Shown here in pieces: positions 776-59,222 of a stretch of DNA of 64,000 bases (position 1 is the stretch's first letter; each line of letters starts with the position of its first letter). The notes under the pieces were generated by a model. That model was not told where the DNA came from. It made no database searches and was given only the letters and a program-made list of their open reading frames with translations. The DNA is taken from IMG/VR virus record IMGVR_UViG_3300001679_000053, positions 38,519-102,518 of that record; one strand, written 5' to 3'. The position numbers and the translations under genes were made by a program. The stretch comes from a virus.

Positions 776-1010
776 TTTCTAAAGCCTCCTGTGTCTTTTT
801 TATGCAGTGTGGGCAGAATAGCCTCACTACTTCTTGCTTGACTACAACACTCCACGATTGTATCATATCTTTGTCTTTCTTGTCAAATGGCTCATGACAA
901 GCATCACATTTCTGTGGCATTCTTCCGAACTGAGCAACTTTATCGGCGATGTCCTTGGAGGCTTGCGCACCTACGCTTTTTTCCATGGTGCGGCGCTCTC
1001 GACGATTCAC
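738..1010 (-). CDS. hypothetical protein, putative Zn ribbon
   Basis: CDAC...CPHC pairs; overlaps neighbours in operon. Confidence 0.6.
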   Translation of the reverse strand: MNRRERRTMEKSVGAQASKDIADKVAQFGRMPQKCDACHEPFDKKDKDMIQSWSVVVKQEVVRLFCPHCIKKTQEALENVSKENIETSTG

Positions 1011-1378
1011 TCTTCCTCTTCCTCAGCCGCGGTGGCAGTGTCGGCATGAACTTGCGCCACGCGGTCATATGTTCTAGAGATGCCCTCGGTCATGATCAAC
1101 TCCCCCTCTTTCTCTTCTACCTCTGGTTCTTCTTCCAGTGGGGACGCGGGAAGTGGAGGGACAGGGTATTGGTTTGCCACTTCCACAAGCGCAGGTGCAT
1201 GTTGCTGGAGTGTAATAAAAGCCCCCTCTAATTGCGCTAGTTGGAGAGAGTATTTTACAATATTTGAGGCGGTTTCGGTTGTGGATGGCTGTTTAGCAGC
1301 ATCTTTCATAAGCCCCATGATTTCATTAATTTGTGCCTGTAAGTTGTGCAGAGCAGCGGTTATAGTTTCGTGTGTCAC
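1007..1378 (-). CDS. hypothetical protein (helical N-terminus, acidic C-terminus)
   Basis: AGGAG RBS, tight operon packing. Confidence 0.6.
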   Translation of the reverse strand: MTHETITAALHNLQAQINEIMGLMKDAAKQPSTTETASNIVKYSLQLAQLEGAFITLQQHAPALVEVANQYPVPPLPASPLEEEPEVEEKEGELIMTEGISRTYDRVAQVHADTATAAEEEEE

Positions 1379-32965: not shown

Positions 32966-35900
32966 TTAGTCGTCAAAAGACGCTCCAGTTGATGCGATAA
33001 CAAAGTCAATCGCAATGAACTCGATGGCACGTGCCGGCTTGACCATAATCTTCGCATACATGATGTTCTGATCAATCAAGTCAGGGGTGGTGGTGGTTTC
33101 GTCGAGAATCAACTTGTAGTCAGTGATACCAAAGGTAACCTTGACGTTTGCGAGGAATGGCTCGACTAACGAACGGAAGCGGTTCCAAGTGGCCTGTACG
33201 TTCTGCTCGAAGAGAATCTTGGACGAGATGATGGAGATTTGCTTCTTCAAGTAAATCACCAAGCGGCGTACGTTGATTCTGTCCAGTGCAGACTGGCGCT
33301 GTTGGAGGGTCTTCTGTCCGAAGACCACAATTCCAGTAGATGGGAAGGACGCAATCGGATTGATGCGCGCTTCGTATAGAATGTCGCGCTCCTTAGAAGT
33401 TAATCGCTGGGTCACATTCAGAACTGGAAGTCCTGCTGCACCCTCGGTAAGTCCGCCGCGGTTAAAGCCTGCGGGAGCGAACCAAAGTTGCGACTTCTTC
33501 TGTGAGCTAGCAAGAACGCCCATCATGGCGACAGTTGGCGGAATCCAGAGGAGTCGACCTGTTCCCTCATCGCGGGTCTGAACCCACGGATAGAAGGTAG
33601 CGCCGTAGCTTGTATCAATCTTGCGATCTCGAAGCGAGATTGCTGTTTGAGTTGGAGTTGAAGCAAGGCGGTCTGCCTTGTTGGCTTTATAAATCTCGTG
33701 AGTTGGCAAATATACATTCGCTAAGTCAATGAGAGCCAGAGCATCGCCTCGGGCTGCACAGATGTCCATCGCTTTCTCGGTTAATTGATTGTTTGTAAGT
33801 CCGGGTGCACAGAGCATGTTCATATCTATTGCTTCAGGATCCGCAACGCTGTCCATTGCGCGGGCCCAAGTGTGATAGATATAGTCATTGTCCTCAGTAG
33901 ACGATCCAGGTGTCATCCCCTTATTATATGCGGGATCTGGTTTCGTAATATCCCAGCCATCGAATGCACCCCAAAGTGGTACTGTAAACTTGTTGTATCC
34001 AGCATCCAGAATAGCCTTCCAGCTACCAGTTGTGTAGGATTGTTCTCGGGCACGAGAGCCGGAAGCGTAGTAGAATACACCGGTTGAGCCTGAGATAACA
34101 TCGTCCAAGGAGAAAACATACCCCCATCCGTTATATCCGCGCGCACCGATATCACCTGCGGTGGCTGGTGCAGTTGGATCATCCGGCCAGTTTTTGGACC
34201 ACATTCTGTGCATTTCACCAATCCCAGGGGTTGAGATGGTACTGTTTATTCCGCGAGATGTTTGCATACCGAAGTAAGCATTTCGAGGGTCAGTAAGACC
34301 TCCAGCAGAAGCTGAATATCTAAGGCGCGCCTTCGGGAACTCCATTTTGAGAGCAAAGTAATCAAGAGCACCACTACCTATGGACATTCCATGCCTTGGA
34401 CTACGTCCGCCGCCGTGGTCGTAGGCGGCGCCGCCCTGGCGCCAAGAGCCTGTTGCCGGTACCGAGAAGCCTGGCGTGGCGGTACCGCCGGGGGTGTAAC
34501 CGTTGGCTCCAAAAGTTGAACCGGAGCCAGCAAATGACACGTAGGTTCCAGACACACTATTGACACTATCGCTAGTGCCGTGGCCATAGGTACCGCCGGG
34601 ACCGGTATTCAGCCCCAGGCGCCGGCATGTGGCGCCGGAGACATCCAGAAGTTTTGGAGGACCAAAATATCCAAAGGGAAGTGTAACTGCATCAATGGCG
34701 CCTGCTTCGACGTCGGCGTTCATTTGAATATACACAAATTTGGAATTGTTGTCGTATTCGCCATAGCGACGGAGTCTCTTCTCCTTGGCATCCCACTTAA
34801 CATACATATCGCCGATCTTTCGGGCGACAAAGTTGGGGCTAGCTGGGTTGAGGGTACATTCGTCATAACGCTCAAGGACAACAACATCATTATCTGAGTC
34901 GTTCATATCGCGAAGGATGACCGAGAATGTTCCGTAATCGCTAACGGAGCTGTTAGATTGGCGAACATTACTAATTGAAATCTTAACATTGTCCATAAGC
35001 CATTCGCCATGGCCGCGGCCCACGAGGCGGAAAAGCTTCTGTATACCTGGAGCATAATATTCGTCTGCGGCTCCTAGATCCTGTCCAATGATCCAACTTG
35101 TACGCCCCTCTGTAGAAGCTACTTGCTTCATTTGGGCTGGTGTGTTATCTGTATCGACGCTTGTTTTTGTCTTAGAATCAGTTAACGTATTGTATCCTAT
35201 AGCAGTAATCATTCCCACCACATTCTTGTTGGTGGCTAAACCTTTATCAAGGAGATCCTGATCGAAAGTCTCGCCTAAGAAGTAGTTAACTTCGGTAGCA
35301 GACGGGTAGAAATCGCCGGCGGTCGCCAGTTGTGGATTCGTATTAAGCTTCTTGCGAATGTAGTTTTCGGAAGAGTCATTAAGGTTGAACTTAATTTTCT
35401 TGCTGACTCCGGAGGCAGAATAAATAAGAGTGAAAAGACCTGTTGTAGAATTAGCCTTAATCAGAGTGTTAATTCCTTGAACGCCAGCTTTTCCTTCTTC
35501 ACCCGTCGTGCCGCCGGTGGCGGACTCGGTCCCGTATAGGGAACCCGACAGAAGAGGAACGCCCTGCTGTGTATAAATAATAGCAGCAAGAGAGGCTGTT
35601 GCAGCCGCTCCAGAAATGATGCCGCGCAGAGTGCCGCCGGCCGAGGTCTGGGCTGCCGATGCGGATGGAAAGACCCAAAGTCCCCATGCTCCGCCAGTTG
35701 TGCCCATGACAGCCGTAGGTCCAGCATTCGTTGTAGCCCAACCTGCGGCGGCGGCGCCACCAGCAGTTCGGCCTGCATCAGTTTGTTGTCCGAGAAGTCG
35801 CACGTAAGTAACAGGTGCGACGTTAGAGCGGAGGAAAGCCTTGGCAGCGTAGCCACCATACATAGGGGAAGTATAGTTGCCCTCGCGGTAAATATCGCTA

Positions 35901-36103
35901 TTTCCGCCGCCGGCTACAGTGTCTCCAAACATCTCAACAAATTTTGAGTATGATTCCACCTTAACGGGGGTCATTGCCAGGCCGCGGCGCGCGCGGCCAA
36001 CGACTACTGGTCCAATCTCTGGAGCGTTTCTTGGTATAAAGGAATTATCAATCTCATTGATGAAAACTCCTGGAGATACAAATTTAAAATTCTTTACCGA
36101 CAT
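32966..36103 (-). CDS. contractile tail sheath protein (gp18-like) with large insertion
   Basis: FVSPGVFINEID, WFAPAGFNRG, INPI, GQKTL, RINVRRL, PARAIEFI. Confidence 0.95.
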   Translation of the reverse strand: MSVKNFKFVSPGVFINEIDNSFIPRNAPEIGPVVVGRARRGLAMTPVKVESYSKFVEMFGDTVAGGGNSDIYREGNYTSPMYGGYAAKAFLRSNVAPVTYVRLLGQQTDAGRTAGGAAAAGWATTNAGPTAVMGTTGGAWGLWVFPSASAAQTSAGGTLRGIISGAAATASLAAIIYTQQGVPLLSGSLYGTESATGGTTGEEGKAGVQGINTLIKANSTTGLFTLIYSASGVSKKIKFNLNDSSENYIRKKLNTNPQLATAGDFYPSATEVNYFLGETFDQDLLDKGLATNKNVVGMITAIGYNTLTDSKTKTSVDTDNTPAQMKQVASTEGRTSWIIGQDLGAADEYYAPGIQKLFRLVGRGHGEWLMDNVKISISNVRQSNSSVSDYGTFSVILRDMNDSDNDVVVLERYDECTLNPASPNFVARKIGDMYVKWDAKEKRLRRYGEYDNNSKFVYIQMNADVEAGAIDAVTLPFGYFGPPKLLDVSGATCRRLGLNTGPGGTYGHGTSDSVNSVSGTYVSFAGSGSTFGANGYTPGGTATPGFSVPATGSWRQGGAAYDHGGGRSPRHGMSIGSGALDYFALKMEFPKARLRYSASAGGLTDPRNAYFGMQTSRGINSTISTPGIGEMHRMWSKNWPDDPTAPATAGDIGARGYNGWGYVFSLDDVISGSTGVFYYASGSRAREQSYTTGSWKAILDAGYNKFTVPLWGAFDGWDITKPDPAYNKGMTPGSSTEDNDYIYHTWARAMDSVADPEAIDMNMLCAPGLTNNQLTEKAMDICAARGDALALIDLANVYLPTHEIYKANKADRLASTPTQTAISLRDRKIDTSYGATFYPWVQTRDEGTGRLLWIPPTVAMMGVLASSQKKSQLWFAPAGFNRGGLTEGAAGLPVLNVTQRLTSKERDILYEARINPIASFPSTGIVVFGQKTLQQRQSALDRINVRRLVIYLKKQISIISSKILFEQNVQATWNRFRSLVEPFLANVKVTFGITDYKLILDETTTTPDLIDQNIMYAKIMVKPARAIEFIAIDFVIASTGASFDD

Positions 36104-36222: not shown

Positions 36223-37098
36223 CTACTTCTCAAAAAAGCCATCATTGCCAGGAACAGGTGCGAGTTCGCGTGGAAACGTGACTTCAACAGTATTTTCGTC
36301 GAGGCGCACAATAGGTCGGTCATCATTCACCCCCTCCCCTATCAGGTATCCTAAAACCCGAATTCCAACCTCTGTGGTATACATACGCATTTCTTCTTGC
36401 ATATCATCCACGTTGTTGGTTTGTGCAAAGTCTTGATTGATAAAAGCTTCGTATAAATGTCCGTTTCTTTTCAAAGTAAAAGCATTGATTTGACCTGTTC
36501 TCGCAATAAAAGGCGCCACCAAGCTGTTCATCTGTTCCTGATATTCGGATTTCAAGATAATCTTATATTCTAGGTTAATATAAACCGGAATGGGAATAGA
36601 CAAAGACTGAATTACTACTTTTCTATTCACGCGAGGGTAATAAGGCTGCCCGGGCTCACCCACTATTTTTCTCATGCTCGCAGCGACGGCAAAGTTTCGC
36701 GTTTTATCTTGCACAATCTTCTTTGCAATAACAATGCGTCCAGTTCTGCCATCTTTATTGTGAGAATAGAGATTTGCTTGAAATGATCCTTTGCGGGTGG
36801 GATCTTTAGCAATAGAAGTGCGCGTAATGCTAACGATCGGAAGTTTAAGGGCGCCTCCATCATCCCGAAGAGACTTTTCGTGCTTAATCTGATACGATCT
36901 TTCTGGTGCTTGCCACAACACAGGAACCTTCGTGAACCCTTCATTTGTGCGAGCGGATAAGTCGAGATCTTCTTTTAGCCATGAAGTAATTGCATAGTCA
37001 ATGCTTTCGATACTAGATCCAAGCATTCCTATATCTTCTAGTGTTCCCTCTTTGAAATCAGGGGGAAGCATGGCAAAATCAAAATTTTCAGGTAGCAT
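36223..37098 (-). CDS. tail terminator / sheath stabiliser (gp15-like)
   Basis: VPVLW..PER, LPIVSI, PVYINLEY motifs; synteny; start moved to ATG 37098. Confidence 0.65.
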   Translation of the reverse strand: MLPENFDFAMLPPDFKEGTLEDIGMLGSSIESIDYAITSWLKEDLDLSARTNEGFTKVPVLWQAPERSYQIKHEKSLRDDGGALKLPIVSITRTSIAKDPTRKGSFQANLYSHNKDGRTGRIVIAKKIVQDKTRNFAVAASMRKIVGEPGQPYYPRVNRKVVIQSLSIPIPVYINLEYKIILKSEYQEQMNSLVAPFIARTGQINAFTLKRNGHLYEAFINQDFAQTNNVDDMQEEMRMYTTEVGIRVLGYLIGEGVNDDRPIVRLDENTVEVTFPRELAPVPGNDGFFEK

Positions 37099-37576
37099 CG
37101 AATAGTCCCTTTCTTGCGCGGCGACAGCGGCCGGAAATCTCAAAACCATGCTCAACTTGACCAAACAGTTTTGTATCTTCGCTTAACTTAACTATCTCGT
37201 AATAATAATCTCCGTACAAAACAAAGTCACCTTCTCGAACATACATGTCTTGATCTTGTTCTAAGCGTCGTTTATGGAAGTGAACATTAATCTCCCAAGT
37301 CTTATCAATTCCAGCGTCTGCTAAATAATCAGTGGAGAACTCTGTGAATTCAACCAGTGCGTAAATGCGGATTGGTGGGAGGTAGGTTTTTTCTATAGCC
37401 TCTCCATATAAACCGTGAAAGTCAGTTCTTTCAATGTCGACGGGGTAATAGAGCAATTGCTGCCCGATGACCTTTTCGATTAACTCATCATTAACCTGTT
37501 TGACCAGATCACGCTCTTTCTTGCCAAAGAAAAGCGGAGGTGGTGGATTTTTAGGTCTGTTCCATTCGTTCGCCAT
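37088..37576 (-). CDS. neck / head-closure protein (gp14-like)
   Basis: ELIEKVIGQ..LYY, LYGEA, EGDFV motifs; synteny. Confidence 0.7.
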   Translation of the reverse strand: MANEWNRPKNPPPPLFFGKKERDLVKQVNDELIEKVIGQQLLYYPVDIERTDFHGLYGEAIEKTYLPPIRIYALVEFTEFSTDYLADAGIDKTWEINVHFHKRRLEQDQDMYVREGDFVLYGDYYYEIVKLSEDTKLFGQVEHGFEISGRCRRARKGLFDAT

Positions 37577-40014: not shown

Positions 40015-41805
40015 TTAGCTAGTAGCGCCGGCTTCGCCGAGCATACCGCGCACAACAACAAGTCCATACATATCAGGACGAACCATCTTCTTCGCGTAAC
40101 GAGTCATCACGCCCTTGCGAGGCACGAAGTCTTCCGGTCCGAAGATCGTAGGTGTGGTCTGCAGTGGAACGTACGGTGCGTACACGTATCCGCTTTCAAG
40201 GAAAGAGGAACCGCGACGGCCGATGAGGACCACATTGCGGAGGAAGTACGGGTCAACAATGACATCGAACTTCTTGCTCAAGGAACCAACCTTGACTGAA
40301 CCAATACTACCCTTATCGTCGTCAGCAGTGACGGAAGCACGGAATCCAGCGGTGAACTCAAGGACGTTAGCAACTTCAGGTCCGCAGACAACAAAGTTAG
40401 CTCCGCCGCGAAGAGTCTTGCGGTGAATCTGTGCAGACACATCATTGATGGTCTCAACGAGAGTCTCGTACCACTCGGATACTGTACCGGTGAAGTCGGG
40501 AGCCGCAGAAGCAGCACCGATCTCAACGCCAGTAACCTTGTTCAAGAACAAGCCAGGTGAACGCGACCAGTAGTAGGTAGCAGCGGAAGCGCCATTAACA
40601 AGGTCACCAATGATCTCGCGATCAATCTCAAGAGCAATCTGCTCAGAGAGGATACTTGTAAGCTCAACCTCGGCATCAAGGTTGTGGTAGGCGTTAAGGT
40701 CTTGACCTAACTCCGGAGTCCACTTAGCCTTGAGCTTCTTGGTACTAGCGGTGACAGCCACGGAATCGACTTTGATGTCAATCTCGGGGATATCAGCGTT
40801 GTTCTCAAGTCCCCACTCGGCAGCACCAACGACAGCACCAATGGCGCTAGCAGCGTTGAAGTTGTCACGAATTGGAACCTGAACCGTGGTACCAGCCAAT
40901 GAAATGGTAGTAGACGCAGAAACTGCGATAGAAACCAGACGGACAGCAGAACCAGTGGCGGTATTAGCCTCAGTCGAGTCAACAAGCTGAGTTAAGCGAC
41001 GAATTTGACGCCATCCAGCAACACCCATGGCAACAGCAGTGTTCGCGGGGCTAACCGTAAACGCACCAAGGTTGTCGAAATCAGCATCTTGCTGAACATA
41101 ACTTGTCTTATCAGTATCCCAAACACAAACTTTGTAGTTTGTGCCTGAACCCGACAGGGCAAGAATATCAGGGTCGAAAACAATGAGCTTCTTCTGAGCC
41201 TCAGTTGCTGAATTAACAGCAAACTGAGCCTTGATGACACCAGTGTTTGCGTGTGCAGCACAAGCGACGGAACCGGTTGGGGAACCATAGGCATAACCGC
41301 GAGCAGAAACGGTACGAGGACCAGAAAGGTCAATACCAGAACTACTGAGCAGGTTAAGTCCGCCGGTCAACTGTGAACCAACCTTGTCACCACCATAGAT
41401 GGAGCCAGTGCCAGCAACGTTGCCGAAGCGACGGGTTTGTGCACCCTCGGTACCACCGAGATCTCCTGAGAACGTGAAGTCCAGGAAGAAGATGAGACCG
41501 CTTGGCAGACTCATCGGCTGAACACTAACAAGATCGTTAGCGATCAGACCCGCGAAGACACGGCGAACGATGGGGAATGCGACGGCAGCAAAGCCCTCAA
41601 CATCTCCAGCGGCCATGGAAGAACCCTCACGGAGAAGCTCTTTTGCTTGATTTTCAAGCAAACGAGCCATAGCTTGGCGGGATCGATCCTTTTCTATTCC
41701 TTCGAGTAGACCAGTCTTCTCCCACTTACTTAATAGTGCGTGCCCTTCTGCACGCATATCTCTGTTGACCATACCTTCGGTCAACCTTTCAACAATACCA
41801 GACAT
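40015..41805 (-). CDS. major capsid protein (T4 gp23-like)
   Basis: LLENQ, FPIVRR, VQPM..PSGLIF, LKAKWTPELGQDLNAYH.LDAE.EL, EIDREI, YAPYVPL, P.KGVMTRY. Confidence 0.97.
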   Translation of the reverse strand: MSGIVERLTEGMVNRDMRAEGHALLSKWEKTGLLEGIEKDRSRQAMARLLENQAKELLREGSSMAAGDVEGFAAVAFPIVRRVFAGLIANDLVSVQPMSLPSGLIFFLDFTFSGDLGGTEGAQTRRFGNVAGTGSIYGGDKVGSQLTGGLNLLSSSGIDLSGPRTVSARGYAYGSPTGSVACAAHANTGVIKAQFAVNSATEAQKKLIVFDPDILALSGSGTNYKVCVWDTDKTSYVQQDADFDNLGAFTVSPANTAVAMGVAGWRQIRRLTQLVDSTEANTATGSAVRLVSIAVSASTTISLAGTTVQVPIRDNFNAASAIGAVVGAAEWGLENNADIPEIDIKVDSVAVTASTKKLKAKWTPELGQDLNAYHNLDAEVELTSILSEQIALEIDREIIGDLVNGASAATYYWSRSPGLFLNKVTGVEIGAASAAPDFTGTVSEWYETLVETINDVSAQIHRKTLRGGANFVVCGPEVANVLEFTAGFRASVTADDDKGSIGSVKVGSLSKKFDVIVDPYFLRNVVLIGRRGSSFLESGYVYAPYVPLQTTPTIFGPEDFVPRKGVMTRYAKKMVRPDMYGLVVVRGMLGEAGATS

Positions 41806-41832: not shown

Positions 41833-43062
41833 TTATTTTATTCCAGCTAATCTTTTCATCCGTTCTTGTAATGGATCGGATGAAGGCGTCTCTTTACGAG
41901 AAGCCCTGATTGTAGAAGACCGGCGACTGATTACTTCGCTAAGTGATTGTGGGCTACGTTTTGGTGTGGCCACCACTGTGCTTTGAAGTGTTTCAAAGAT
42001 CGTCCTTGCTTCTGGGGCTGAACCGGCGTTGGAAATCGCTTCGACAATTTTATCTTTTTGTCGCTCATTTAAGGAGGTATTTCGTAAAATACGGTTCGTA
42101 TAAAGCAAACGAGCATTTGAAAGATTTACGTCATGAAGACCTTCTTTCAATTCTTGCACCGCTAGCTTATATTGTGTGTTTTGCTCATTGAGTTGTTTAT
42201 TTTCGAAAACCAACTCTTCTTGAGCTTTCTTTAAAGTTTCTAAATCGTCTTGTAGATCGGTGCTGCGGCGGTGGGCGATTTCTTTTTCCATCTCCCACTT
42301 CATGCTCTCGGATGAGCGGCCGGCCCAGCCCGATAGGGTAGCTCCCATGTCTACAGTAAGTTTTTCTATGATGGCATCAGTAAGGGAGTCAATATCGAAC
42401 TTCTCTTCCAAGCCTTTTTGTGCAGCATCGGTGGCTGCAATACCTGAAGCTGACGCCGTTTCCGCTTCGGCACTAGATGAACCTTCGTCATCTTCATCAT
42501 CGTCGTCGTCGTCGGTGTCGCCTGACTCTTGTGTGTCAAATAGGTTATCTTCTGGCGCGCTGAGGCCGGCTACTTCGACAATCTCGTCGTCCTCGTCCTC
42601 GTCATCGGCGCAATCATCGCCCTCTTCCGAAAGTATGTTTGCAATATCGTCGGCTGTGATGTCAAACTCTTGGTTCTCATTTATTTCATCACCTAACGCA
42701 GCAACAGCCTCTTGGAGAGCGCCTAAATCAATAGTAACGTCTATTTGCTCGCCTTGGTGGGGGAAGTCTTTTAAATTTTTGCCCTCTAAGTCCGAAAAAT
42801 CATCCGTGGCGGCCAGAGGGATCTCATTATCCTCATCAATTGTGTCTTCGGTTCCAGGCTCGGCAGGTTCGGTACCAAGATCAGGCATTTCACCACCCAG
42901 ATCAGGCATTTCGCCACCCAGATCGTCTTGCTCCAACAAATTATCCAAAGTTTCTTTAACTTCTTGCGAGTATTTTTCAATAACCGCAGTTTCGGCGTTC
43001 TTTAAGGCTGCTTCGCGCAGTGCCTTGGCGTCGATGATTGCTTCACTGAGCAAAGTAGACAT
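41833..43062 (-). CDS. prohead core / scaffold protein
   Basis: acidic coiled coil upstream of MCP; NLSNARLLY.N; ends RMKRLAGIK; start 43062 after AGGAG. Confidence 0.8.
   Translation of the reverse strand: MSTLLSEAIIDAKALREAALKNAETAVIEKYSQEVKETLDNLLEQDDLGGEMPDLGGEMPDLGTEPAEPGTEDTIDEDNEIPLAATDDFSDLEGKNLKDFPHQGEQIDVTIDLGALQEAVAALGDEINENQEFDITADDIANILSEEGDDCADDEDEDDEIVEVAGLSAPEDNLFDTQESGDTDDDDDDEDDEGSSSAEAETASASGIAATDAAQKGLEEKFDIDSLTDAIIEKLTVDMGATLSGWAGRSSESMKWEMEKEIAHRRSTDLQDDLETLKKAQEELVFENKQLNEQNTQYKLAVQELKEGLHDVNLSNARLLYTNRILRNTSLNERQKDKIVEAISNAGSAPEARTIFETLQSTVVATPKRSPQSLSEVISRRSSTIRASRKETPSSDPLQERMKRLAGIK
42875..42924. repeat. 21-bp tandem repeat (DLGGEMP) in scaffold gene
   Basis: AGATCAGGCATTTC(A/G)CCACCC x2 plus partial copy. 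Confidence 0.7.
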
Positions 43063-43095
43063 GAATTGACTCCTAATATGACAATAGTTCACAAA

Positions 43096-50673: not shown

Positions 50674-50907
50674 CTATTTTTTTCTATTGCGTCTTTGTTG
50701 TAGTCTTAGATGTTTTTGTTCATCTCGGATCCGGCGGCGTTCTGCTTTTTGGCGCTTTTGGCGCTTAGCATCAGATGGCTTGGTATACCTTCTACGTTCC
50801 TTCACCTCTTCAACAATCTTCTCTTTCTTTGTCTTCTTGATAAATCTCTTGATCATTCTCTCATGATTTCCACGGCATTCTTTTGCGCGGACAACAACAT
50901 TAGCCAT
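50674..50907 (-). CDS. rpsU: 30S ribosomal protein bS21 (phage-encoded)
   Basis: V.V.....ERMIKRFIKK.KKE.I.EE.KERRRYTKPS..KR.K signature; start 50907. Confidence 0.88.
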   Translation of the reverse strand: MANVVVRAKECRGNHERMIKRFIKKTKKEKIVEEVKERRRYTKPSDAKRQKRQKAERRRIRDEQKHLRLQQRRNRKK

Positions 50908-50912
50908 TATTC

Positions 50913-51332
50913 CTACTTCATTGCGTTCCACACATGTGAAGCGCCTCCTACTAGTGAACTAATGTCAACACCCGCATCCCGGGAGCTTCCTAGATCGACT
51001 GAGCCGGCTGCTGTGCCAGCGTTTTCTTCTCTGGACATAGGCGCTGTGCCTTCAAATAAATCCATCCCATTGTATGCATCTTTGCCAATGGAGTCCATTA
51101 ACTCTTGACGGCGAGCATTCATCTTTTGGCGCGACTCTTTCATCTTGCGAGCCTCTGCAGCGCGATTTGGTGGTGTCGGGGTGGCGGCACGTGACTCCAC
51201 TAGTGGCTTTGCTTGCATGCCTTGAACTACTTCGGATACAATGTTCGATAACATTCCTTCCTCTATAAGAACTTCATGTATGCATTCTTTTACTAGTGGT
51301 TTGATTAGTTGTTTTAAATCTGATTTTTTCAT
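50913..51332 (-). CDS. hypothetical head-module protein with amphipathic leader
   Basis: MKKSDLKQLIKPLVKECIHEVLIEE. Confidence 0.65.
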   Translation of the reverse strand: MKKSDLKQLIKPLVKECIHEVLIEEGMLSNIVSEVVQGMQAKPLVESRAATPTPPNRAAEARKMKESRQKMNARRQELMDSIGKDAYNGMDLFEGTAPMSREENAGTAAGSVDLGSSRDAGVDISSLVGGASHVWNAMK

Positions 51333-52885
51333 AATACTCTCTTGTTAATTCCTGCGATCGTTTGCCAACGATCATATGTTTCTTGAAGTGGTCCCGTGGG
51401 TCCCCGGTTTTGTGTACCGATTCGGGGAGTTGTTCGGGTCGCGCGCGGGCGGCTAGCCAGTTCGGAAGGCGCGGCGGAGCCGGGCTCAGGGGAATCCGCT
51501 GGATCCGTGGGGGGTGGCGCGCCAAGATCATTACGCACCCATGCAACGGCCGCCTTGAGCGCTTCCACACCTGCTTTAATTGTAGGAGATGGCGCATGTT
51601 CAAGCACCTCCAAAACAACATCTATATAGTTCTTCCCGTCGTCATTCTTGGCGTAGACAGCGGTGCGGATATATTCTTCGGGAACGTGTTCATAGAGTTC
51701 CTTCACACCGTTAACGGCTTTACCAGCTTTGAGAGCTTTGAATCCCTTGTCCCCGACTGCCATGGCTTTTGTGGCGGTAGCAAGTGCTTTTCCTGTTTTC
51801 CCAGTGGTTGCAACAGTTTTAGCTATCTTGCCTAGCCTTCCAAGTTTAGCAAATTTACCGACCACCGGAACTAAGGCAATTAAATCCAACATAGCCCAAC
51901 CTATTTTCTTCTGGTATAGATTTAAACCCAGGCTGGCAAGCGTAGCAGCAGACGGTATGAGGGTTGCTTCTGCGCCAGGGAACAGACCGGCGGCGCCGAC
52001 TATGTCCAATGTCGATCCCATTATCGCTAATGCTTTTTCCTTCATGGGGGATTCTTCATCTTCTTCCTCGGCTTCATCGGCAGGTGTGTCGGGCTCCTCT
52101 TCTCCGGTTTGTCCTGGGAGATTCCAAGTTGGTTGCTCAGTATCTTTGTTCCAATAAAAGGGTGTGCCGTCGGCGGATGCCCACTCTTCCCAGGTATCAT
52201 TCAGATGTCCCACAAAGGTCTCGCCGTTTGGACCGGTCAAGTACACCGGTTCTGGCTCAGGGCCAGGTCCGAGGGCATCGCCACCAATAGTGGTCGACTC
52301 TTCATCGGGAGGCTCGTCGGAGGTGGCGGTGGCACCCTGTGATACGTCATCACGGGGATCAGTGGTGTTGACAACCGAAGTGGCGGCTACAGGAGGAGCA
52401 GTAAACTTAACTGAATTAACGCGGCCCCAATAGTTTAAAGCTTTTATAAGAGCGGTGTTCTCTGCATCTGGGAGATTCCAGCCGGCTATTGTCTTCAGTA
52501 TCAGTGCTGTTCCTGCTGAGTCAATGATGCGATCCTGTTCGCTATTTAGTCCCTTTAAGCTTAATTCTAGCATGATGCCTTCATCACCGGCAATCTGAGC
52601 TATCACATCAATTAATGCTTGGATGTATTCCGGGTCTAAGGGGGGAGTAAGCCGGCCAAGAACCTGTTTCAAGGAATCCCGCTTGTATTCAGAGTTTAGA
52701 CCGGTGCTCACGTCTGGGTAATCGCTAGCTTGTGGGTCTTCTTCGGGTTCCTCCCAGTGATCTTCAGTATCATAGCCACTATCTCTCAGCCTCTGTGCGA
52801 GCGCGCTGGTCTCCTCAGACAAAAAGTTACGCCAATTTTCGTGGAGCAATTGCTGTCCTTCAAAGCTTGACCAGCTTTTAGTCAT
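51329..52885 (-). CDS. putative internal head protein with WW domain and pre-toxin-like segment
   Basis: LLHENWRNFLSEE leader; WEEWASADGTPFYWNKDTEQPTWNLP; LDLIALVPVVGK; ends PLQE..RWQTIAGI. Confidence 0.6.
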   Translation of the reverse strand: MTKSWSSFEGQQLLHENWRNFLSEETSALAQRLRDSGYDTEDHWEEPEEDPQASDYPDVSTGLNSEYKRDSLKQVLGRLTPPLDPEYIQALIDVIAQIAGDEGIMLELSLKGLNSEQDRIIDSAGTALILKTIAGWNLPDAENTALIKALNYWGRVNSVKFTAPPVAATSVVNTTDPRDDVSQGATATSDEPPDEESTTIGGDALGPGPEPEPVYLTGPNGETFVGHLNDTWEEWASADGTPFYWNKDTEQPTWNLPGQTGEEEPDTPADEAEEEDEESPMKEKALAIMGSTLDIVGAAGLFPGAEATLIPSAATLASLGLNLYQKKIGWAMLDLIALVPVVGKFAKLGRLGKIAKTVATTGKTGKALATATKAMAVGDKGFKALKAGKAVNGVKELYEHVPEEYIRTAVYAKNDDGKNYIDVVLEVLEHAPSPTIKAGVEALKAAVAWVRNDLGAPPPTDPADSPEPGSAAPSELASRPRATRTTPRIGTQNRGPTGPLQETYDRWQTIAGINKRVL

Positions 52886-53486
52886 TGTCCAACACCTCAT
52901 TTAGCAGTCTGTTAATTTTATCTGCTTTGGTGAGGATATTAGTGGGCTGTAAATCTTTTGCCTCCTTCATCATGAAGGCGTTCGGGGTAGATGGCTCGGA
53001 TACAAAGTCAAAACAAATCAATTGGAAGTCATCTTCTACGATGGTCTGCCCTTGTTGCTCAGTCACGGAGCCCATGCCTCGCGAGGAGATCCCTAGTTTA
53101 ACACCCGACTCTACTAAGGAGCGAAGAATGCCACCAGAAGGTGTGTTAAGTACTTTTACTTTGCCCATAACATTTTTGTTATCCCACCAAACTTCAGTAA
53201 TAAGGTGAGATGCATTTTTCAAATTGATCACTGAATCATCGGGATGGTCTAATTCACCAAGGGCGCGCTGTTCGTTTACCAGTTTGGTATAATTCTTCAT
53301 CTCGCGCATTAAAATTTTATGCGGATAAACTCTTCCGTTTCCATTTTGAACATCTGCCTCTTGAAGTTTGCCGCTTAAAATCATGCCTCCGTCGGCGACA
53401 TATCGTTTTTCGGCCTCGTTCAAAAGATCCTGACAGACGCCGCCTTCGCATAGCTCATAATACTCTCTTAAAAGTTTCTGACCCAT
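52878..53486 (-). CDS. prohead core protease (T4 gp21-like)
   Basis: NGNGRVYP, ALGELDHP, GISSRGMGS, DFVSEPST. Confidence 0.95.
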   Translation of the reverse strand: MGQKLLREYYELCEGGVCQDLLNEAEKRYVADGGMILSGKLQEADVQNGNGRVYPHKILMREMKNYTKLVNEQRALGELDHPDDSVINLKNASHLITEVWWDNKNVMGKVKVLNTPSGGILRSLVESGVKLGISSRGMGSVTEQQGQTIVEDDFQLICFDFVSEPSTPNAFMMKEAKDLQPTNILTKADKINRLLNEVLDND

Positions 53487-53557: not shown

Positions 53558-53840
53558 ATTTAACTCCGTGGTCTCCAAAGACCATATTTAAAATGTAAGA
53601 TGTTCCTGACGACACCCATCCAAGTAGGAAAAAGTTAACGACGGAAACGTCATAGCTAAATAGTTCCGTAAAGGGAGAAAGTAGCATTAAAAACCAACCT
53701 ACATGAAATCCCATGCACATCGGACATTTAAAAAGCTTTCCTAGCCTTCCTTTGGCGGGCCTTATTCTATCGAATATTGTACCATATACAATGATTTGTG
53801 TTAAGCCGTAAGCGCACAGTATGAATGTTAGTAATTCCAT
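53532..53840 (-). CDS. membrane protein with CxxC, DUF1360-like
   Basis: LT.IIV...IFDRIR...LFKCPMCMGFHVG; three hydrophobic segments. Confidence 0.65.
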   Translation of the reverse strand: MELLTFILCAYGLTQIIVYGTIFDRIRPAKGRLGKLFKCPMCMGFHVGWFLMLLSPFTELFSYDVSVVNFFLLGWVSSGTSYILNMVFGDHGVKYEHKHLDK

Positions 53841-54298
53841 TATTTTTTAACCGCGTGCTGGTTAAACTTGCTACCTAAAAATGCTTGCAGTTCATCATCC
53901 ACTACCGGTATAGGATCTGTGGGTTGAGCACTCTCTAATGAGGCAATCAAATCATTTAAAAATGCGGTCTCAACATTATCATCAACAATAGCCGATATAT
54001 CATCGTTCACATTTAACAAGTCCAGCCCCGTGTTGCTCTTAAACCCATCATCTGCTCCATATAATTTTTTCATAATATCGCGGGCGTCTTTGGCGCCCTG
54101 CCATAAAGAATAAATATTGCTTATGCCCGGGACTTGCTGGATAGCTACATCCGCGGCCATCTTTCCTGCTTCTTTACCTGCTTCTTTGGCTCTGTAAATT
54201 TTTATGGCTTTTCTCAGGTCACCGACTGTCGTAATCTTAGTTTCTTCGGTAACAACAAACTTGTCCCAGTTTTCCATTATAACTTTCATTTCGGACAT
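53840..54298 (-). CDS. putative internal head protein
   Basis: MKVIMENWDKFVVTEE leader. Confidence 0.55.
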   Translation of the reverse strand: MSEMKVIMENWDKFVVTEETKITTVGDLRKAIKIYRAKEAGKEAGKMAADVAIQQVPGISNIYSLWQGAKDARDIMKKLYGADDGFKSNTGLDLLNVNDDISAIVDDNVETAFLNDLIASLESAQPTDPIPVVDDELQAFLGSKFNQHAVKK

Positions 54299-54847: not shown

Positions 54848-55664
54848 CAGTAGACATCTCCTTTGCTAGTTTTTGGGTTTTTAGGATAGTCGTGAGCATC
54901 TTTTCGTTCATTCCCGCTTGGGCATATGAATCAAGTATGGTCAAAACCTGCTTGCTTTTCTCCACCATATCAGGATCTTCCTTAACATATTTACTCTGGC
55001 GTGCTGCAGCCATGATATCTTTCAGGCGTGAGATCTCTTCATTTAAAAACGTTTTTAACCCCAGCGCATTGTCAGAAAAAGAAGCGATGTAATGAGCTAA
55101 AAGTTCTTTTTGCTCGTCTAACAGTTCTCCTTCATATTTGTCATTAAACTTCTTAACAAAAGTTCTATAAACAACATTGTCTATTTGTTCTGCAATCTGT
55201 GATGGGTCTCTCTTTTCTCGCATCTCTGCAATCACCTGATTCTCTAAAATGACGCGCTGTTTTGGTGTGGTCGTATCAGAGAAGATTTGTGCTATAGTCG
55301 CAAGAGTCTTGTAATTGGGAACGAAGTTCTTAAAAATAGAAGGAGAGAGAGATTTATTTACCTCATGGATAAGTGCGGTCTGTGCCGCAAATAATTCCTG
55401 TGTAGGAATTAGCGCTCGTTGGCGCTTGCACTCTTTTAAAATCTTTTGGTGTGTCTCGGTATCTAGATCCTGATTTTCATACAATGAACGATAACACTCT
55501 AGTTCTTTCTTTAAAGAAGTGTTGACAGAAAAATGTTTCTTGACAATCTCTATAATTGTCTTTTGAGTCTTGGCGTCACCTCTGAGAATAGCTACTGTAT
55601 TTTCTCGAATGAGTGCCTCATATACAAATGCGGTGTTACGCTTTTTGTTGTGTCTTATCTTCAT
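54831..55664 (-). CDS. hypothetical protein downstream of portal
   Basis: 277 aa helical; KHNKKRNT-type start. Confidence 0.65.
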   Translation of the reverse strand: MKIRHNKKRNTAFVYEALIRENTVAILRGDAKTQKTIIEIVKKHFSVNTSLKKELECYRSLYENQDLDTETHQKILKECKRQRALIPTQELFAAQTALIHEVNKSLSPSIFKNFVPNYKTLATIAQIFSDTTTPKQRVILENQVIAEMREKRDPSQIAEQIDNVVYRTFVKKFNDKYEGELLDEQKELLAHYIASFSDNALGLKTFLNEEISRLKDIMAAARQSKYVKEDPDMVEKSKQVLTILDSYAQAGMNEKMLTTILKTQKLAKEMSTDGHNN

Positions 55665-57627
55665 CTTCTTTCTCCGTTAAAGTTTTGTTACTAGCATCCA
55701 AATCATTCAAAAGGTTTCGGACGGACTCGTTGATTTGGAAAACCTTATCCTCCTCATCCATCTCTCGCTGTTTATAAGTAGAGTGGTCGTATTCATTAAT
55801 ACCTATTCCAATACCAGAGCCATTTTTCAAAGTGCTGATGTCTGTAAGTCCGGGCACTATATTGCGTAGCGTATTGCTACTCTTCTCCTTAGCGTACTTG
55901 GATGCAATAGAGCGAGTTCGGGCGCCAGCATCGCGTCGATCGACCTTTTTGGGATGGTATACCTTTCCTTTAGCACCGGGCGTTAATCGTGGTGCGTTAC
56001 GGGAGCCGGGGGGTACTGCTAGGAGCGCGGACTCATCGCCGCCGCCTTCATCCGCTCCGGCATCACCGGCTGGCATTTCTTCTGGTCCGGCGAGGTCACC
56101 GCCTAAGTCACCGCCTAAGTCGCCGCCAAGGTCGCCACCTAGATCTCCGCCTAGACCACCACCAGCTTCGCCGGCGGCTGCAGCTTCTGCAACCGCTTGG
56201 AGAGCAGCATCGTGTTCTCTATCATAATACATTTCGCGCTGGTTCCGTGTGAACTCTTCATTAGACATCGCAAAAACGTGTTCAGCAACCCAGCGCCGTG
56301 AGAAAAATCCTTCGGTAGCTGAGCCAGCGATATCAAACTTCGTCTTCCAGTGCTCAAGCTCTTGAAGCTCTGCGATTTTGGATGGGTTGTTAAGGCTCAG
56401 ATCAAATCCCAACAGGTCGTCGCCGCGGAATCCGAGGGTATACAGGTGTATGATACTGATCTTAGTTAACTCAGCGATGATAACACGCTGCAACCGCTGT
56501 ACGGTGCGCGAGAAACGAATGTCTTTCTGGGCCAACGTTGTCTTGTCTTCTGCCGCGCCCTCGCCCATTGAAAGATAAGCTTGAGGAATTTTGAGAGCAG
56601 AGAACAGCTTGTCGCGAAGGTATTTGATATCATCAATTTGAGTAATGTTTTGTGCTCCTGCGAGGCTTTCGATTGTTGTCGCAGAGCCGGGTCGAACTGG
56701 TAGAAAGTAGTCTTCTTCAATAGACATGGGGTTATATCGTAAATCAACACGGCCAGTCTTATTATCAATAACAGAGTGGCGCTTGAGGTTCGACACAACC
56801 TTTTGCATGTATTGTTCCACATCCTGTGGGGGGATGGCTCCCACGTCAATCTTAAAGACTCGCCGCTCAGAAGAACGCACCACACGATAAGCCATCATGG
56901 CGTCCTCCATAAGAGTGAGTTGGCGCCAGATGCGGCGGGCGGGCTCAAGGATTGAGGTTCCATAGGGAGCGTACTTATCATTTCCAAGAATTCTAAAGTG
57001 TGCCACCTGCCAGTTTTCGAAGGTCATGCCGCCTGAGTTCCACTGGTATTGAACGTAATTTGGGTTTGTGGAGTCTAAGCCTTCGAGCCTTTCGATCTCA
57101 TTCGACGGAAGGGCAATAACAGATTGGACACCATATTTTTCATCAATGTCCAGATAAAGAAAGAAGTCCCCGTATTTGCACATGGTGCGGGCCCAACCAA
57201 AAAGATTGTATTTAAGGTTAAGGATGTTATCAAATAAAATAGCTAGGACAGCTTTAATCTCTTCATTCGGGCACTTGATCTTTAACATCGGACGCAAATC
57301 CGAATAGGTAGTCATCTCGTCGGCATATATGTCCATTGAGGACGCAATCTCTGGTGTGTATTCCATCTGATCAAAGTCCACATAGCGCTCTGCGCGTGCT
57401 TGATTTTGCATCGCGTTGGTAGCAATGATATCTAAAGGGTTATACAGTGTCTTCTTAAACTGCTGACCAGAAGCCGTCTGGAAGCGTGAAGAGAACTTAT
57501 CCAAATGTTGGCGTCGGATTCTTCTTCCCGACTGAGATCTGTAACTAATGATCGGTCCGGAGAATAATCTCGTTAAAGCTTTGAATAAGCTATTTTGTTT
57601 ATTTGCTGGGTTGTTGTCTAAGGGCAT
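55636..57627 (-). CDS. portal protein (T4 gp20-like)
   Basis: PEIA..DIYADE, L.LMEDA...YR..R..ERRVFKIDVG, EDYFLP.R, ALKIP. Confidence 0.95.
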   Translation of the reverse strand: MPLDNNPANKQNSLFKALTRLFSGPIISYRSQSGRRIRRQHLDKFSSRFQTASGQQFKKTLYNPLDIIATNAMQNQARAERYVDFDQMEYTPEIASSMDIYADEMTTYSDLRPMLKIKCPNEEIKAVLAILFDNILNLKYNLFGWARTMCKYGDFFLYLDIDEKYGVQSVIALPSNEIERLEGLDSTNPNYVQYQWNSGGMTFENWQVAHFRILGNDKYAPYGTSILEPARRIWRQLTLMEDAMMAYRVVRSSERRVFKIDVGAIPPQDVEQYMQKVVSNLKRHSVIDNKTGRVDLRYNPMSIEEDYFLPVRPGSATTIESLAGAQNITQIDDIKYLRDKLFSALKIPQAYLSMGEGAAEDKTTLAQKDIRFSRTVQRLQRVIIAELTKISIIHLYTLGFRGDDLLGFDLSLNNPSKIAELQELEHWKTKFDIAGSATEGFFSRRWVAEHVFAMSNEEFTRNQREMYYDREHDAALQAVAEAAAAGEAGGGLGGDLGGDLGGDLGGDLGGDLAGPEEMPAGDAGADEGGGDESALLAVPPGSRNAPRLTPGAKGKVYHPKKVDRRDAGARTRSIASKYAKEKSSNTLRNIVPGLTDISTLKNGSGIGIGINEYDHSTYKQREMDEEDKVFQINESVRNLLNDLDASNKTLTEKEDEDKTQQKA
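56092..56163. repeat. 12-bp tandem coding repeat (GGDL)n in portal C-terminus
   Basis: GGGLGGDLGGDLGGDLGGDLGGDLA. Confidence 0.85.
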
Positions 57628-57635
57628 TTATTTTC

Positions 57636-59222
57636 TCACTTTATAATCCATTTATATTGACTATATAAATCTTCTGCTTGATTCATTTTATCAAAGATGC
57701 TATCTTTTTTATAGCCATCTTGTCCTTTAATTTGAGTATTCATACTAGTTTTTGTGGTATATATCGCATCCACAAAGGCTTTTTGATAGTTTAACTCTCT
57801 AGCATTTGACTGTAAGGCCGTGTCTCTGACCCAACACGCAATCGCTAAAGCCATGATAAGGTCATCATGGTAGCCTTTCATTGCTTGCGGCTTACCGTTC
57901 CTCCAAATAAAAGTTTTCATTTCGTTAAGAGTACGAGATGAATATACCTTAATTAGTTTGTTTCTGATGAATTCTTCTAGTTTTGCAACAATCAATGGGC
58001 GCGTTTTCATTGTTGTGGAGAATCCGGGGACTGCGCTGTTTATAACTTCTGCTTGATACTGCTCTATATATTCGTGCGTAGATTTAACTGAATGATAAAC
58101 ATTCGGGTATCGATGATCATTGATGAGCTTATCCAAAACTGAATACCCAATATTGTTGTTTTCCACTACAAGCATGCAATTACCAAATTCTCTTCCCACT
58201 TGGTTCAGCAAGTTAGCATACATATCTAATGTTGGTTTTCCTTGGTATTCTCCCACTATTTCTAGCGTCTCAAGCTTGACAATGTGAAAAGTTGAAAAGT
58301 CGGCGCCGTCGCCGCGGGCCACATCAGCAACCATTAAATAATTGCACGTAGGATCAAATTCCTCCCAGATCCAGAAGTTACGGTCAAATCCGGTTCGGTA
58401 CTTCGGCTCTTTTATGTTAGAGGCTAACCATTCCATACACCCTGAATCTATAACTGTCTCGCCGGATGTGTTGAAGTTGCATGCTAACTCTTGTGCAATT
58501 TGTCGTTTAGACATATTTCTGGTTTCTTTATCATACCAAATTTTATCTCTATCCGGGTGGACGTCCCACGCTAACGTGGTTAGGTTAAAATTGTTAGCAC
58601 CAGCTTCCGCGTCGACGCAAGCTTTGTGGAACCAGTTACCGACACCGTTCGGAGTAGAGAGCGCGATGCATCGACCACCCGTTGACAGCGTGGGATATAA
58701 GCCAGTCCATAATTCTTCGAGCCCTTCAATATGTGCGGCCTCGTCGAGTACTAAGAGAGACAATGCTTCAGAACGACCAGCATCACCAGATGTGGATGTG
58801 GCTTTTATCGAAGAACCATTCGAAAGTTCAAAAGAGGTGCGGTTATCCACACTGATAGTGGCTATCTTCATCCAGTCGGGAAGGTTACGCATAATGTTCT
58901 TAACTTTTTTGACCAAGTTTCCAGCCGTTGCAAACTTAGTTGCCATAACCAAGATTGCTTTATCGCGATGGAATAGCATAAGCCAGACAACATACCCAGC
59001 CGTTATCGTGGAGATTCCAAGTTGGCGCGCTTTCAAGATAACGTTAAACCTATAATCATTAAAGTCTTTTAACAGTTCATCTTGAAAGTCATAGGTATCA
59101 AAAAGAATTAACCCATGCATCGGGTGAGATATTCTGGCATAGGTTTTAAGAAAATATGAGGGCTCTTTACCGCACTTTAATATTTCTTTGACTCTTTGCT
59201 TTTTGTCTAATTGGAAGCTCAT
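57636..59222 (-). CDS. terminase large subunit (T4 gp17-like)
   Basis: KARQLGIST, LLVLDEAA, LSTPNG, ADVARG, VENN, HDDL. Confidence 0.95.
   Translation of the reverse strand: MSFQLDKKQRVKEILKCGKEPSYFLKTYARISHPMHGLILFDTYDFQDELLKDFNDYRFNVILKARQLGISTITAGYVVWLMLFHRDKAILVMATKFATAGNLVKKVKNIMRNLPDWMKIATISVDNRTSFELSNGSSIKATSTSGDAGRSEALSLLVLDEAAHIEGLEELWTGLYPTLSTGGRCIALSTPNGVGNWFHKACVDAEAGANNFNLTTLAWDVHPDRDKIWYDKETRNMSKRQIAQELACNFNTSGETVIDSGCMEWLASNIKEPKYRTGFDRNFWIWEEFDPTCNYLMVADVARGDGADFSTFHIVKLETLEIVGEYQGKPTLDMYANLLNQVGREFGNCMLVVENNNIGYSVLDKLINDHRYPNVYHSVKSTHEYIEQYQAEVINSAVPGFSTTMKTRPLIVAKLEEFIRNKLIKVYSSRTLNEMKTFIWRNGKPQAMKGYHDDLIMALAIACWVRDTALQSNARELNYQKAFVDAIYTTKTSMNTQIKGQDGYKKDSIFDKMNQAEDLYSQYKWIIK

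Follow-up and report, generated by a model that had tools for sequence, protein, structure and literature searches.

A canonical WW domain in a hypervariable head-gene product of an uncultured, distantly T4-like marine phage

The window analysed here (64,000 nucleotides, positions 38,519 to 102,518 of IMG/VR virus record IMGVR_UViG_3300001679_000053) encodes a protein, P0001, whose residues 222-264 form a genuine WW domain on the evidence of sequence, profile match and predicted fold. By resemblance the domain is of the Prp40/FBP11 type, which binds PPLP and poly-Pro ligands, and it carries one additional predicted beta-strand at its N-terminal side. The family is known and the host unexpected: the domain is canonical, yet it lies in a virus of prokaryotes. 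The record, a contig of 102.5 kb with an estimated completeness of 54%, belongs to an uncultured, distantly T4-like marine myovirus; among cultured phages, those closest to it are the immuto phages of Flavobacterium and Microcystis phage Mel-JY01 (portals approximately 38-40% identical). P0001 is read, with a probability of roughly 0.55, as an encapsidated head-cargo protein trimmed at its ends, the WW domain of which docks on a proline-rich partner.

The WW family (Pfam PF00397) is marked by a conserved pair of Trp residues 20-22 residues apart and by a Pro three residues past the second Trp. An earlier note on this DNA had pointed to a WW-consensus peptide flanked by acidic, Pro-rich linkers. 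The minus-strand translation of open reading frame 51329-52900 gives that same peptide (Table 1), and the linkers are present as described. No element of the signature is missing and the register is canonical, with 22 residues from W237 to W259, P262 three positions past the second Trp, G245 in loop 1, F248-Y249-W250-N251 in strand 2 and T254 in loop 2, all aligned by HMMER with PRPF40A and Prp40. WW is the top Pfam profile match of P0001, scoring 18.8 bits (E 0.0017) with the full-length sequence, 25.4 bits (E 1.5e-5) with the 31-mer alone and 23.2 bits when the genome was searched in six frames. The gathering score of this profile is 26.9 bits; it is exceeded by the homologue P0005 (27.9 bits), which is 79% identical to P0001 overall and 71% within the WW module and keeps every signature residue. 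A third copy, in the metagenomic protein P0051, scores 25.4 bits. When residues 219-264 were compared by phmmer with all PDB sequences, the matching chains were WW domains in 45 of 45 cases, with PRPF40A/FBP11 ranking first (E 8.9e-8) and yeast Prp40 and TCERG1/FBP28 next. An exhaustive phmmer search of 1.84 billion cluster representatives yielded 101 matches at E<=1e-3, of which all those inspected or named are WW proteins (the remainder were not checked); outside the protein's own family and P0051, the inspected or named matches are eukaryotic WW proteins (Perkinsus, the dinoflagellate Fugacium, PRP40-like proteins).

The predicted fold agrees with this assignment. AlphaFold2, given the family sequences only, places strands at residues 228-232, 237-241, 247-251 and 256-258 with a predicted local distance difference test score (pLDDT) of 75-85, and a model of a 46-residue segment built with a WW alignment reaches a pLDDT of 89; strands 237-241, 247-251 and 256-258 occur in both models. 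The earlier note had let the assignment stand or fall with a WW profile match and a three-stranded sheet; Pfam WW matches, and the predicted WW sheet has three strands. In a Foldseek comparison with the PDB, each of the best 50 matches is an entry that contains a WW domain. For FBP11 WW1 (1ZR7), Foldseek gives an rmsd of 0.9 Å across 29 columns (41% identity), and VIA-align gives 1.0 Å across 30 residues with a Z-score of 4.2. In PRPF40A, the ligand contacts of WW1/WW2 are His149/Tyr190, Tyr157/Tyr198, Tyr159/Tyr200 and Trp168/Trp208 (PMC11079029), and these positions align with W240, F248, W250 and W259 of P0001. Since all four are aromatic, as they also are in P0005 and P0051, the putative proline-binding face appears to be kept. 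The P0051 copy is 54% identical and retains the fold and contact residues. Among the alignments inspected, only P0005 and P0051 align across the extra N-terminal strand, T-F-V-G-H.

Several observations weigh against the assignment. The P0001 copy lies under the Pfam gathering threshold, Pro takes the place of the usual Thr two positions ahead of the second Trp, and the domain is highly acidic, with a net charge of -6. The second AlphaFold2 model used a eukaryotic WW alignment and is thus partly homology-driven. The E-values and Z-scores of the structural matches are weak because the domain has only 30 residues, so that the structure lends support and is not independent proof.

A match that is not homologous could have arisen by chance, by convergence on a four-stranded meander such as a solitary bacterial PQQ/BamB-type blade, or by mis-assembly of a eukaryotic fragment into a phage contig. 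Structurally, a WW domain is equivalent to three of the strands in a propeller blade, and weak profile similarity of WW domains to PQQ blades is on record (PMC3797127); in P0001 a fourth strand is predicted, the Pfam score is below the cut-off, and the generic structural matches in VIA include WD40 blades (Z 3.4-3.7) and PipX at Z-scores similar to that of the WW match (WD40/PipX range 3.4-4.8). Against these points, no PQQ or propeller family is matched in Pfam at E<=10, no chain other than WW is found among the 45 PDB matches, and the identity to FBP11 WW1 is 40-41% with the whole signature in register. The domain is in frame within a phage gene, and its G+C content (0.52) and G+C content at third codon positions (GC3, 0.49) match those of the whole gene and of the phage structural genes. 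The WW-bearing allele is present on several independent assemblies; with the phage-like composition, this indicates that the domain is neither a mis-assembly nor a fresh import. On the database matches, the GC3, the independent assemblies and the diverged allele, chance match and mis-assembly were rejected, and the domain is very improbably anything other than a WW homologue. The earlier note had left the choice between horizontal acquisition and convergence. The closeness of the domain to WW domains of the Prp40/FBP11 type, with the full signature in register, favours homology over convergence, while neither donor nor direction of a transfer can be read from only about 30 alignable residues.

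The P0001 domain shares the full signature and the predicted three-stranded antiparallel sheet with the WW domains of Prp40, PRPF40A (FBP11) and TCERG1 (FBP28) (PF00397; 8PXW, 2L5F, 1O6W, 1ZR7, 1E0L). It differs from them in being single, in its location in a tailed bacteriophage and in having no FF or HECT partner domains. It also has Trp in place of the usual His/Tyr in strand 1 and of the third Tyr in strand 2; the added N-terminal strand and the Pro for Thr before the second Trp are further differences, and its ligand binding is putative.

Neither the WW module (tblastn, E<=1) nor the whole of P0001 (tblastn) has a match in 50,697 deposited phage genomes. No significant PHROGs match was obtained for P0001, the WW module being likewise without a PHROG family; the whole P0001 model gave only noise against BFVD in Foldseek, and peptide patterns for the WW segment had no match in IMG/VR. 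The degenerate DNA pattern for D-G-x-x-[FY]-Y-[YWF]-N-x-x-T-x4-W-x-x-P, which is strict and which P0005 would escape, matched three times in IMG/VR, in two giant-virus metagenome-assembled genomes and in one contig resembling nucleocytoplasmic large DNA viruses, as judged by the neighbouring genes. In BFVD, convincing WW-like viral folds among named entries are those of Megaviridae only (e.g., A0A5J6VLH2); an entry without a name, A0A1B1ISZ3 (522 residues, 31% identity), also matched. Pfam WW was above its cut-off in none of 14 control prokaryote genomes, and a 2025 paper describes WW domains as characterised to date in eukaryotic proteins only (PMC12331936). WW or WW-like modules outside cellular eukaryotes are known from the protein O-mannosyltransferase of M. 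tuberculosis (PMC12331936) and from the Megaviridae proteins. The mycobacterial element is a WW-like loop within an enzyme, whereas that of P0001 is a canonical free-standing domain, and the giant viruses infect eukaryotes, whereas P0001 belongs to a virus of prokaryotes. P0051 is a giant metagenomic protein of 2,228 residues with a WW domain of the same subtype at residues 394-432, including the T-F-V-G strand. Its N-terminal domain is of the HExxH type and has homologues among small proteins on IMG/VR phage contigs of 24-190 kb, one of which also encodes a homologue of the window gene o146; P0051 is therefore probably phage-borne.

The features of the P0001 gene and its surroundings are listed in Table 1. 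Residue numbers refer to the longest open reading frame, which starts at 52900 and has 523 codons. The true start is almost certainly the second ATG, since a GAGGT Shine-Dalgarno sequence lies 7 bases upstream of it, it overlaps the stop codon of the upstream protease gene (ATGACTAA), and all homologues begin there; a deposited version of 518 residues also exists (P0121). The N-domain has no known fold or family in Pfam, PHROG or BFVD.

Table 1. Positions (in the window) of the WW protein gene, its parts and other features of the phage mentioned in the text.
Feature	Position	Strand	Remarks
WW core of the earlier note	52113..52207	-	H232-P262; W237, G245, F248, Y249, W250, N251, T254, W259, P262
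WW module	52109..52237	-	Residues 222-264; extra N-terminal strand T228-H232 and WW strands 237-241, 247-251, 256-258, predicted; AlphaFold2, Foldseek, VIA, phmmer against PDB
WW protein gene (P0001)	51329..52885	-	518 residues from the likely start; stop codon 51329-51331
N-terminal leader	52814..52885	-	Residues 6-29; conserved protease-type sites L19-H-E21 and L27-S-E29, putatively cleaved; alignment and site scan
Helical N-domain	52391..52708	-	Residues 65-170; conserved in the family; AlphaFold2 pLDDT 70-83
Linker 1, acidic, Pro-rich	52238..52390	-	Residues 171-221; net charge -10; GPGPEPEPVY at its end; pLDDT <50
Linker 2, acidic	52046..52108	-	Residues 265-285; net charge -12
Second payload	51521..52045	-	Residues 286-460; hydrophobic helical hairpin, Lys/Ala/Gly-rich stretch, helical domain; alignment, AlphaFold2 helices
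C-terminal tail, invariant	51332..51391	-	Residues 504-523; L505-Q-E507 site, then R-W-Q-x-I-A-G-I-N-K; proposed prohead docking peptide
T4 gp21-type prohead maturation protease	52878..53486	-	phrog_207, E 1.9e-55; directly upstream of and overlapping the P0001 gene
Putative scaffolding protein (P0126)	41833..43092	-	Just upstream of the major capsid protein gene; acidic middle, coiled-coil ends, 17 L/I-x-E sites
Major capsid protein	40015-41805
Portal	55636-57627	-
Terminase	57636-59222
Tail sheath	32966-36103
NPPPPLF motif	37529..37549	-	N-terminus of the 162-residue neck-region protein P0262 (gene 37088-37576); candidate poly-Pro ligand
Small acidic coiled-coil protein (P0263)	1007..1378	-	Q-Y-P-V-P-P-L-P, sole exact PPLP in the record; candidate ligand

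The WW protein gene occupies a slot that is syntenic yet hypervariable. In seven IMG/VR loci the same order is kept (terL, portal, four small genes, protease, WW protein gene, o139, bS21, o146, o226, o249), and across these loci the portals are 69-92% and the proteases 72-95% identical, against 23-57% for the N-domain of the WW protein gene, the middle of which often cannot be aligned. The family, consisting of P0001 and 18 homologues, follows one plan, in which a conserved leader and helical N-domain extend to about residue 170, acidic Pro-rich linkers surround an interchangeable middle, and an invariant tail forms the C-terminus. WW is the middle module in P0001, in its fragment P0003 and in P0005. 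The hydrophobic hairpin with its Lys/Ala/Gly-rich helical part (the second payload) is found in six members (P0001, P0004, P0006, P0014, P0016 and P0017), and at least two further unnamed modules occur elsewhere in the family. Longer, fused members of the family did not turn up, a negative of little weight. A protein-atlas feature score of 0.91 likened the hairpin to the PT-TG pre-toxin family (PF14449); this was not confirmed, no Pfam match being obtained at E<=1 in the 19 family members. P0017, encoded on a 3.6-kb ENA contig, carries a FliG_C domain (PF01706, 38.1 bits, above the cut-off) as a payload, and a domain from the flagellar switch was not expected in a protein of this phage head slot.

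P0005 consists of nothing but N-domain, WW domain and tail, from which WW is seen to be an autonomous, mobile payload. The domain might nevertheless be a mere passenger, shuffled into the disordered, recombination-prone linker of a hypervariable gene and tolerated there without a specific ligand or function. Its occurrence is very sporadic (three family members and one unrelated giant protein), it sits between low-complexity acidic Pro-rich linkers, and P0004, which is 61% identical to P0001, has the same second payload and no WW domain. This explanation is nonetheless quite unlikely: two alleles at 71% identity and the 54%-identical copy in P0051 keep all fold and contact residues, the GC3 is phage-like with the WW allele on several independent assemblies, and WW is the sole payload between N-domain and tail in P0005.

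The C-terminal tail links the WW protein to the putative scaffold of the same phage. P0126 looks like the scaffolding protein by its position, its composition and its homology to the gene that precedes the major capsid protein gene in the immuto phages, the homology covering its C-terminal third. Its last residues are P-L-Q-E-R-M-K-R-L-A-G-I-K, and those of the corresponding proteins are R-W-Q-K-L-A-G-I-I-K in the immuto phages and R-M-K-K-L-A-G-I-V-K in Mel-JY01; the C-terminal sequence of the WW protein family is P-L-Q-E-T-Y-D-R-W-Q-T-I-A-G-I-N-K-R-V-L. A six-frame search of the whole record (102.5 kb) for R-[WM]-[QK]-x-[LI]-[AS]-G-I gave two matches only, at the C-termini of P0001 and P0126, and a hidden Markov model of the tail found no third protein with it in the six-frame genome. 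The C-terminal 130 residues of P0126 matched 4,799 metagenome homologues, a number which shows that the phage clade is very abundant in marine metagenomes. The core R-M-[KR]-[KR]-L-A-G-I is invariant in the best 120 of them, and these best 120 matches are close P0126 homologues only. The tail is absent from T4 gp22 and is thus clade-specific. The sequence R-R-M-Q-K-L-A-G-I was also seen near the N-terminus of an unrelated hypothetical protein of 154 residues in Flavobacterium phage immuto 3-5A (gene immuto35A_187, 49-513), which hints that the scaffold-tail peptide is a reusable address in this clade.

Coat-binding tails at the C-terminus of scaffolding proteins and cargo-loading peptides of encapsulins are established. 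The tail of P0001 resembles both in being a short conserved C-terminal peptide, carried by unrelated proteins, for which docking inside an HK97-fold shell is proposed; it differs in that, within one phage clade, the putative scaffold and a variable cargo protein have the peptide in common.

The distribution of L/I-x-E sites, the type cut by the prohead protease of T4-like phages, was compared with expectations from shuffled sequences. P0126 has 17 such sites (8.2 expected) along its whole length. P0001 has 4 (5.9 expected), at residues 19, 27, 402 and 505, and P0005, P0007 and P0013 have 3 each (4.1-5.3 expected), at positions 14 and 22 and some 18 residues before the C-terminus; residue 402 of P0001 is thus an extra interior site beyond those near the ends. 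The pattern of P0126 suits a protein that is digested, and that of P0001 would suit one trimmed at both ends and then retained. The WW protein family was also considered as a scaffold paralogue, which was rejected on the difference in sites (4 against 17) and because the tail alone is shared.

The earlier note had called P0001 a putative internal head protein. The coupling to the protease gene, the scaffold-matching tail and the near confinement of L/I-x-E sites to the ends speak for that part of the claim, and it is from these that we infer encapsidation, cleavage and ejection. P0001 would be co-assembled into the prohead core by its invariant tail, a mimic of the putative scaffold C-terminus, at the site used by the scaffold. 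The prohead protease would then remove leader and tail at the L/I-x-E sites near both ends and leave the interior, including the WW domain and hairpin, intact. The mature body (N-domain, WW domain, hairpin and helical domain) would stay in the DNA-filled head and leave with the DNA at infection. The WW domain would finally dock on a proline-rich peptide, for which a host protein is the likeliest bearer and a phage partner a less likely one.

A comparable case is provided by the internal proteins of T-even phages, which are highly diverse injected defence proteins with only a capsid targeting sequence in common (PMC3012670). P0001 likewise lies in a T4-type head module, its start overlapping the stop of the gp21-type protease gene and its synteny being kept in the seven loci. 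With IPI, IPII, IPIII and Alt it shares the coding among head genes, a hypervariable body, short conserved addressing parts with adjoining L/I-x-E sites, and a body largely free of such sites, as is expected of a protein surviving maturation. P0001 differs in being much larger and multi-modular, in that its conserved parts are an N-domain of about 170 residues and a C-terminal tail rather than a 10-residue N-terminal targeting sequence, in that its sequence has no detected similarity to the T4 internal proteins, and in that packaging and injection are deduced rather than observed. The carrier is read as a variant form of internal head protein, addressed by a scaffold-type tail.

Other observations tell against this picture. 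The leader of P0001 has no obvious similarity to the capsid targeting sequence of T4, and it has no PHROG or Pfam match to T4 internal proteins (no T4 internal protein sequence was compared directly). The similarity of the tails spans just about 10 residues. Many scaffold homologues have Asp for Glu in L-Q-[ED], which may belong to a binding helix rather than to a cleavage site. Several interior L/I-x-E sites are present in P0004, P0006, P0015 and P0016.

The partner of the WW domain was looked for among proline-rich segments of the phage itself. In the real genes of the record PPPP and PPLP occur once each (Table 1), and the WW2 and WW1 domains of PRPF40A bind these two motif classes (PMC11079029). 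The PPPP motif of P0262 lies within E-W-x-[RK]-P-x-x-P-P-P-P-L-F, and of at least 591 relatives found in IMG/VR 80 were read: PPPLF is present in all 80 and PPPPLF in nearly all. The PPLP of P0263, whose gene lies among early/replication genes, is present in P0263 itself and in three relatives, so in four of the five sequences, and reads PPIP in the fifth; Q-Y-P-[VL]-P-P-[LI]-P is present in all three full-length relatives found. Either motif is a possible ligand. The earlier note had suggested NPPPPLF as an example of the virion parts to be bound, and as a dedicated WW partner it is not supported: the motif is clade-wide, whereas WW occurs in about three protein clusters. Since both motifs are conserved across the clade almost always without a WW domain, they did not evolve for it.

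These motifs bear on an explanation in which no host target exists and the WW domain acts as an assembly adaptor in the producing cell or virion, docking the core protein to a Pro-rich phage segment, namely PPPPLF of P0262, PPLP of P0263 or, in an autoinhibited state, its own linkers. PPLP and PPPP belong to the motif classes of the closest solved relatives, each is present once in real genes, and both are conserved in relatives of P0262 and P0263. Further, the WW domains of PRPF40A are autoinhibited by a flanking Pro-rich segment (PMC11079029), and that of P0001 also lies between Pro-rich linkers. Such an adaptor is nevertheless regarded as unlikely. The proteins with PPPLF and PPLP are conserved while WW is found in about three clusters only, so that the motifs serve another role, and an essential assembly contact would not be so sporadic. 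The occurrences are close to chance, with about 0.1-0.3 expected for each motif by the author's estimate. A neck protein, moreover, binds outside the portal after packaging, beyond the reach of a protein within the head.

Three further observations concern the head-gene block. A ribosomal protein bS21 gene (50674-50931, minus strand; Pfam Ribosomal_S21, 36.2 bits) lies two genes downstream of that of the WW protein; it keeps this place in all seven of the related loci from IMG/VR, and in Mel-JY01, too, a bS21 gene follows that of the protease. The C-terminal region of the portal contains the sequence G-G-D-L repeated five times, followed by an acidic Gly-rich tail, and cultured relatives align only to about residue 470-530. 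A gene of 152 codons between those of portal and protease (53840-54298, minus strand) is a second hypervariable slot, with 24-77% identity across the loci against 55-95% for the flanking genes.

If encapsidation and docking occur as proposed, P0001 would provide the first instance of a canonical, functional WW domain among viruses of prokaryotes, as an injected effector that seizes a proline-rich host protein, with loading by a scaffold tail and the swapping of WW, FliG_C and membrane-hairpin payloads in one head-gene slot. Taken whole, this proposal is tentative and is held to be doubtful. A canonical WW domain in a head gene of a tailed phage extends the use of this proline-recognition module to phage-bacterium biology, and the domain is small and easily expressed. 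The surrounding architecture may outweigh the domain itself, since a hypervariable payload between a conserved N-domain and a scaffold-copied tail suggests a simple cargo-loading rule in an abundant marine clade. If the 20-residue tail does suffice for encapsidation, it would be a practical tag for packing foreign proteins, as the capsid targeting sequence of T4 has been.

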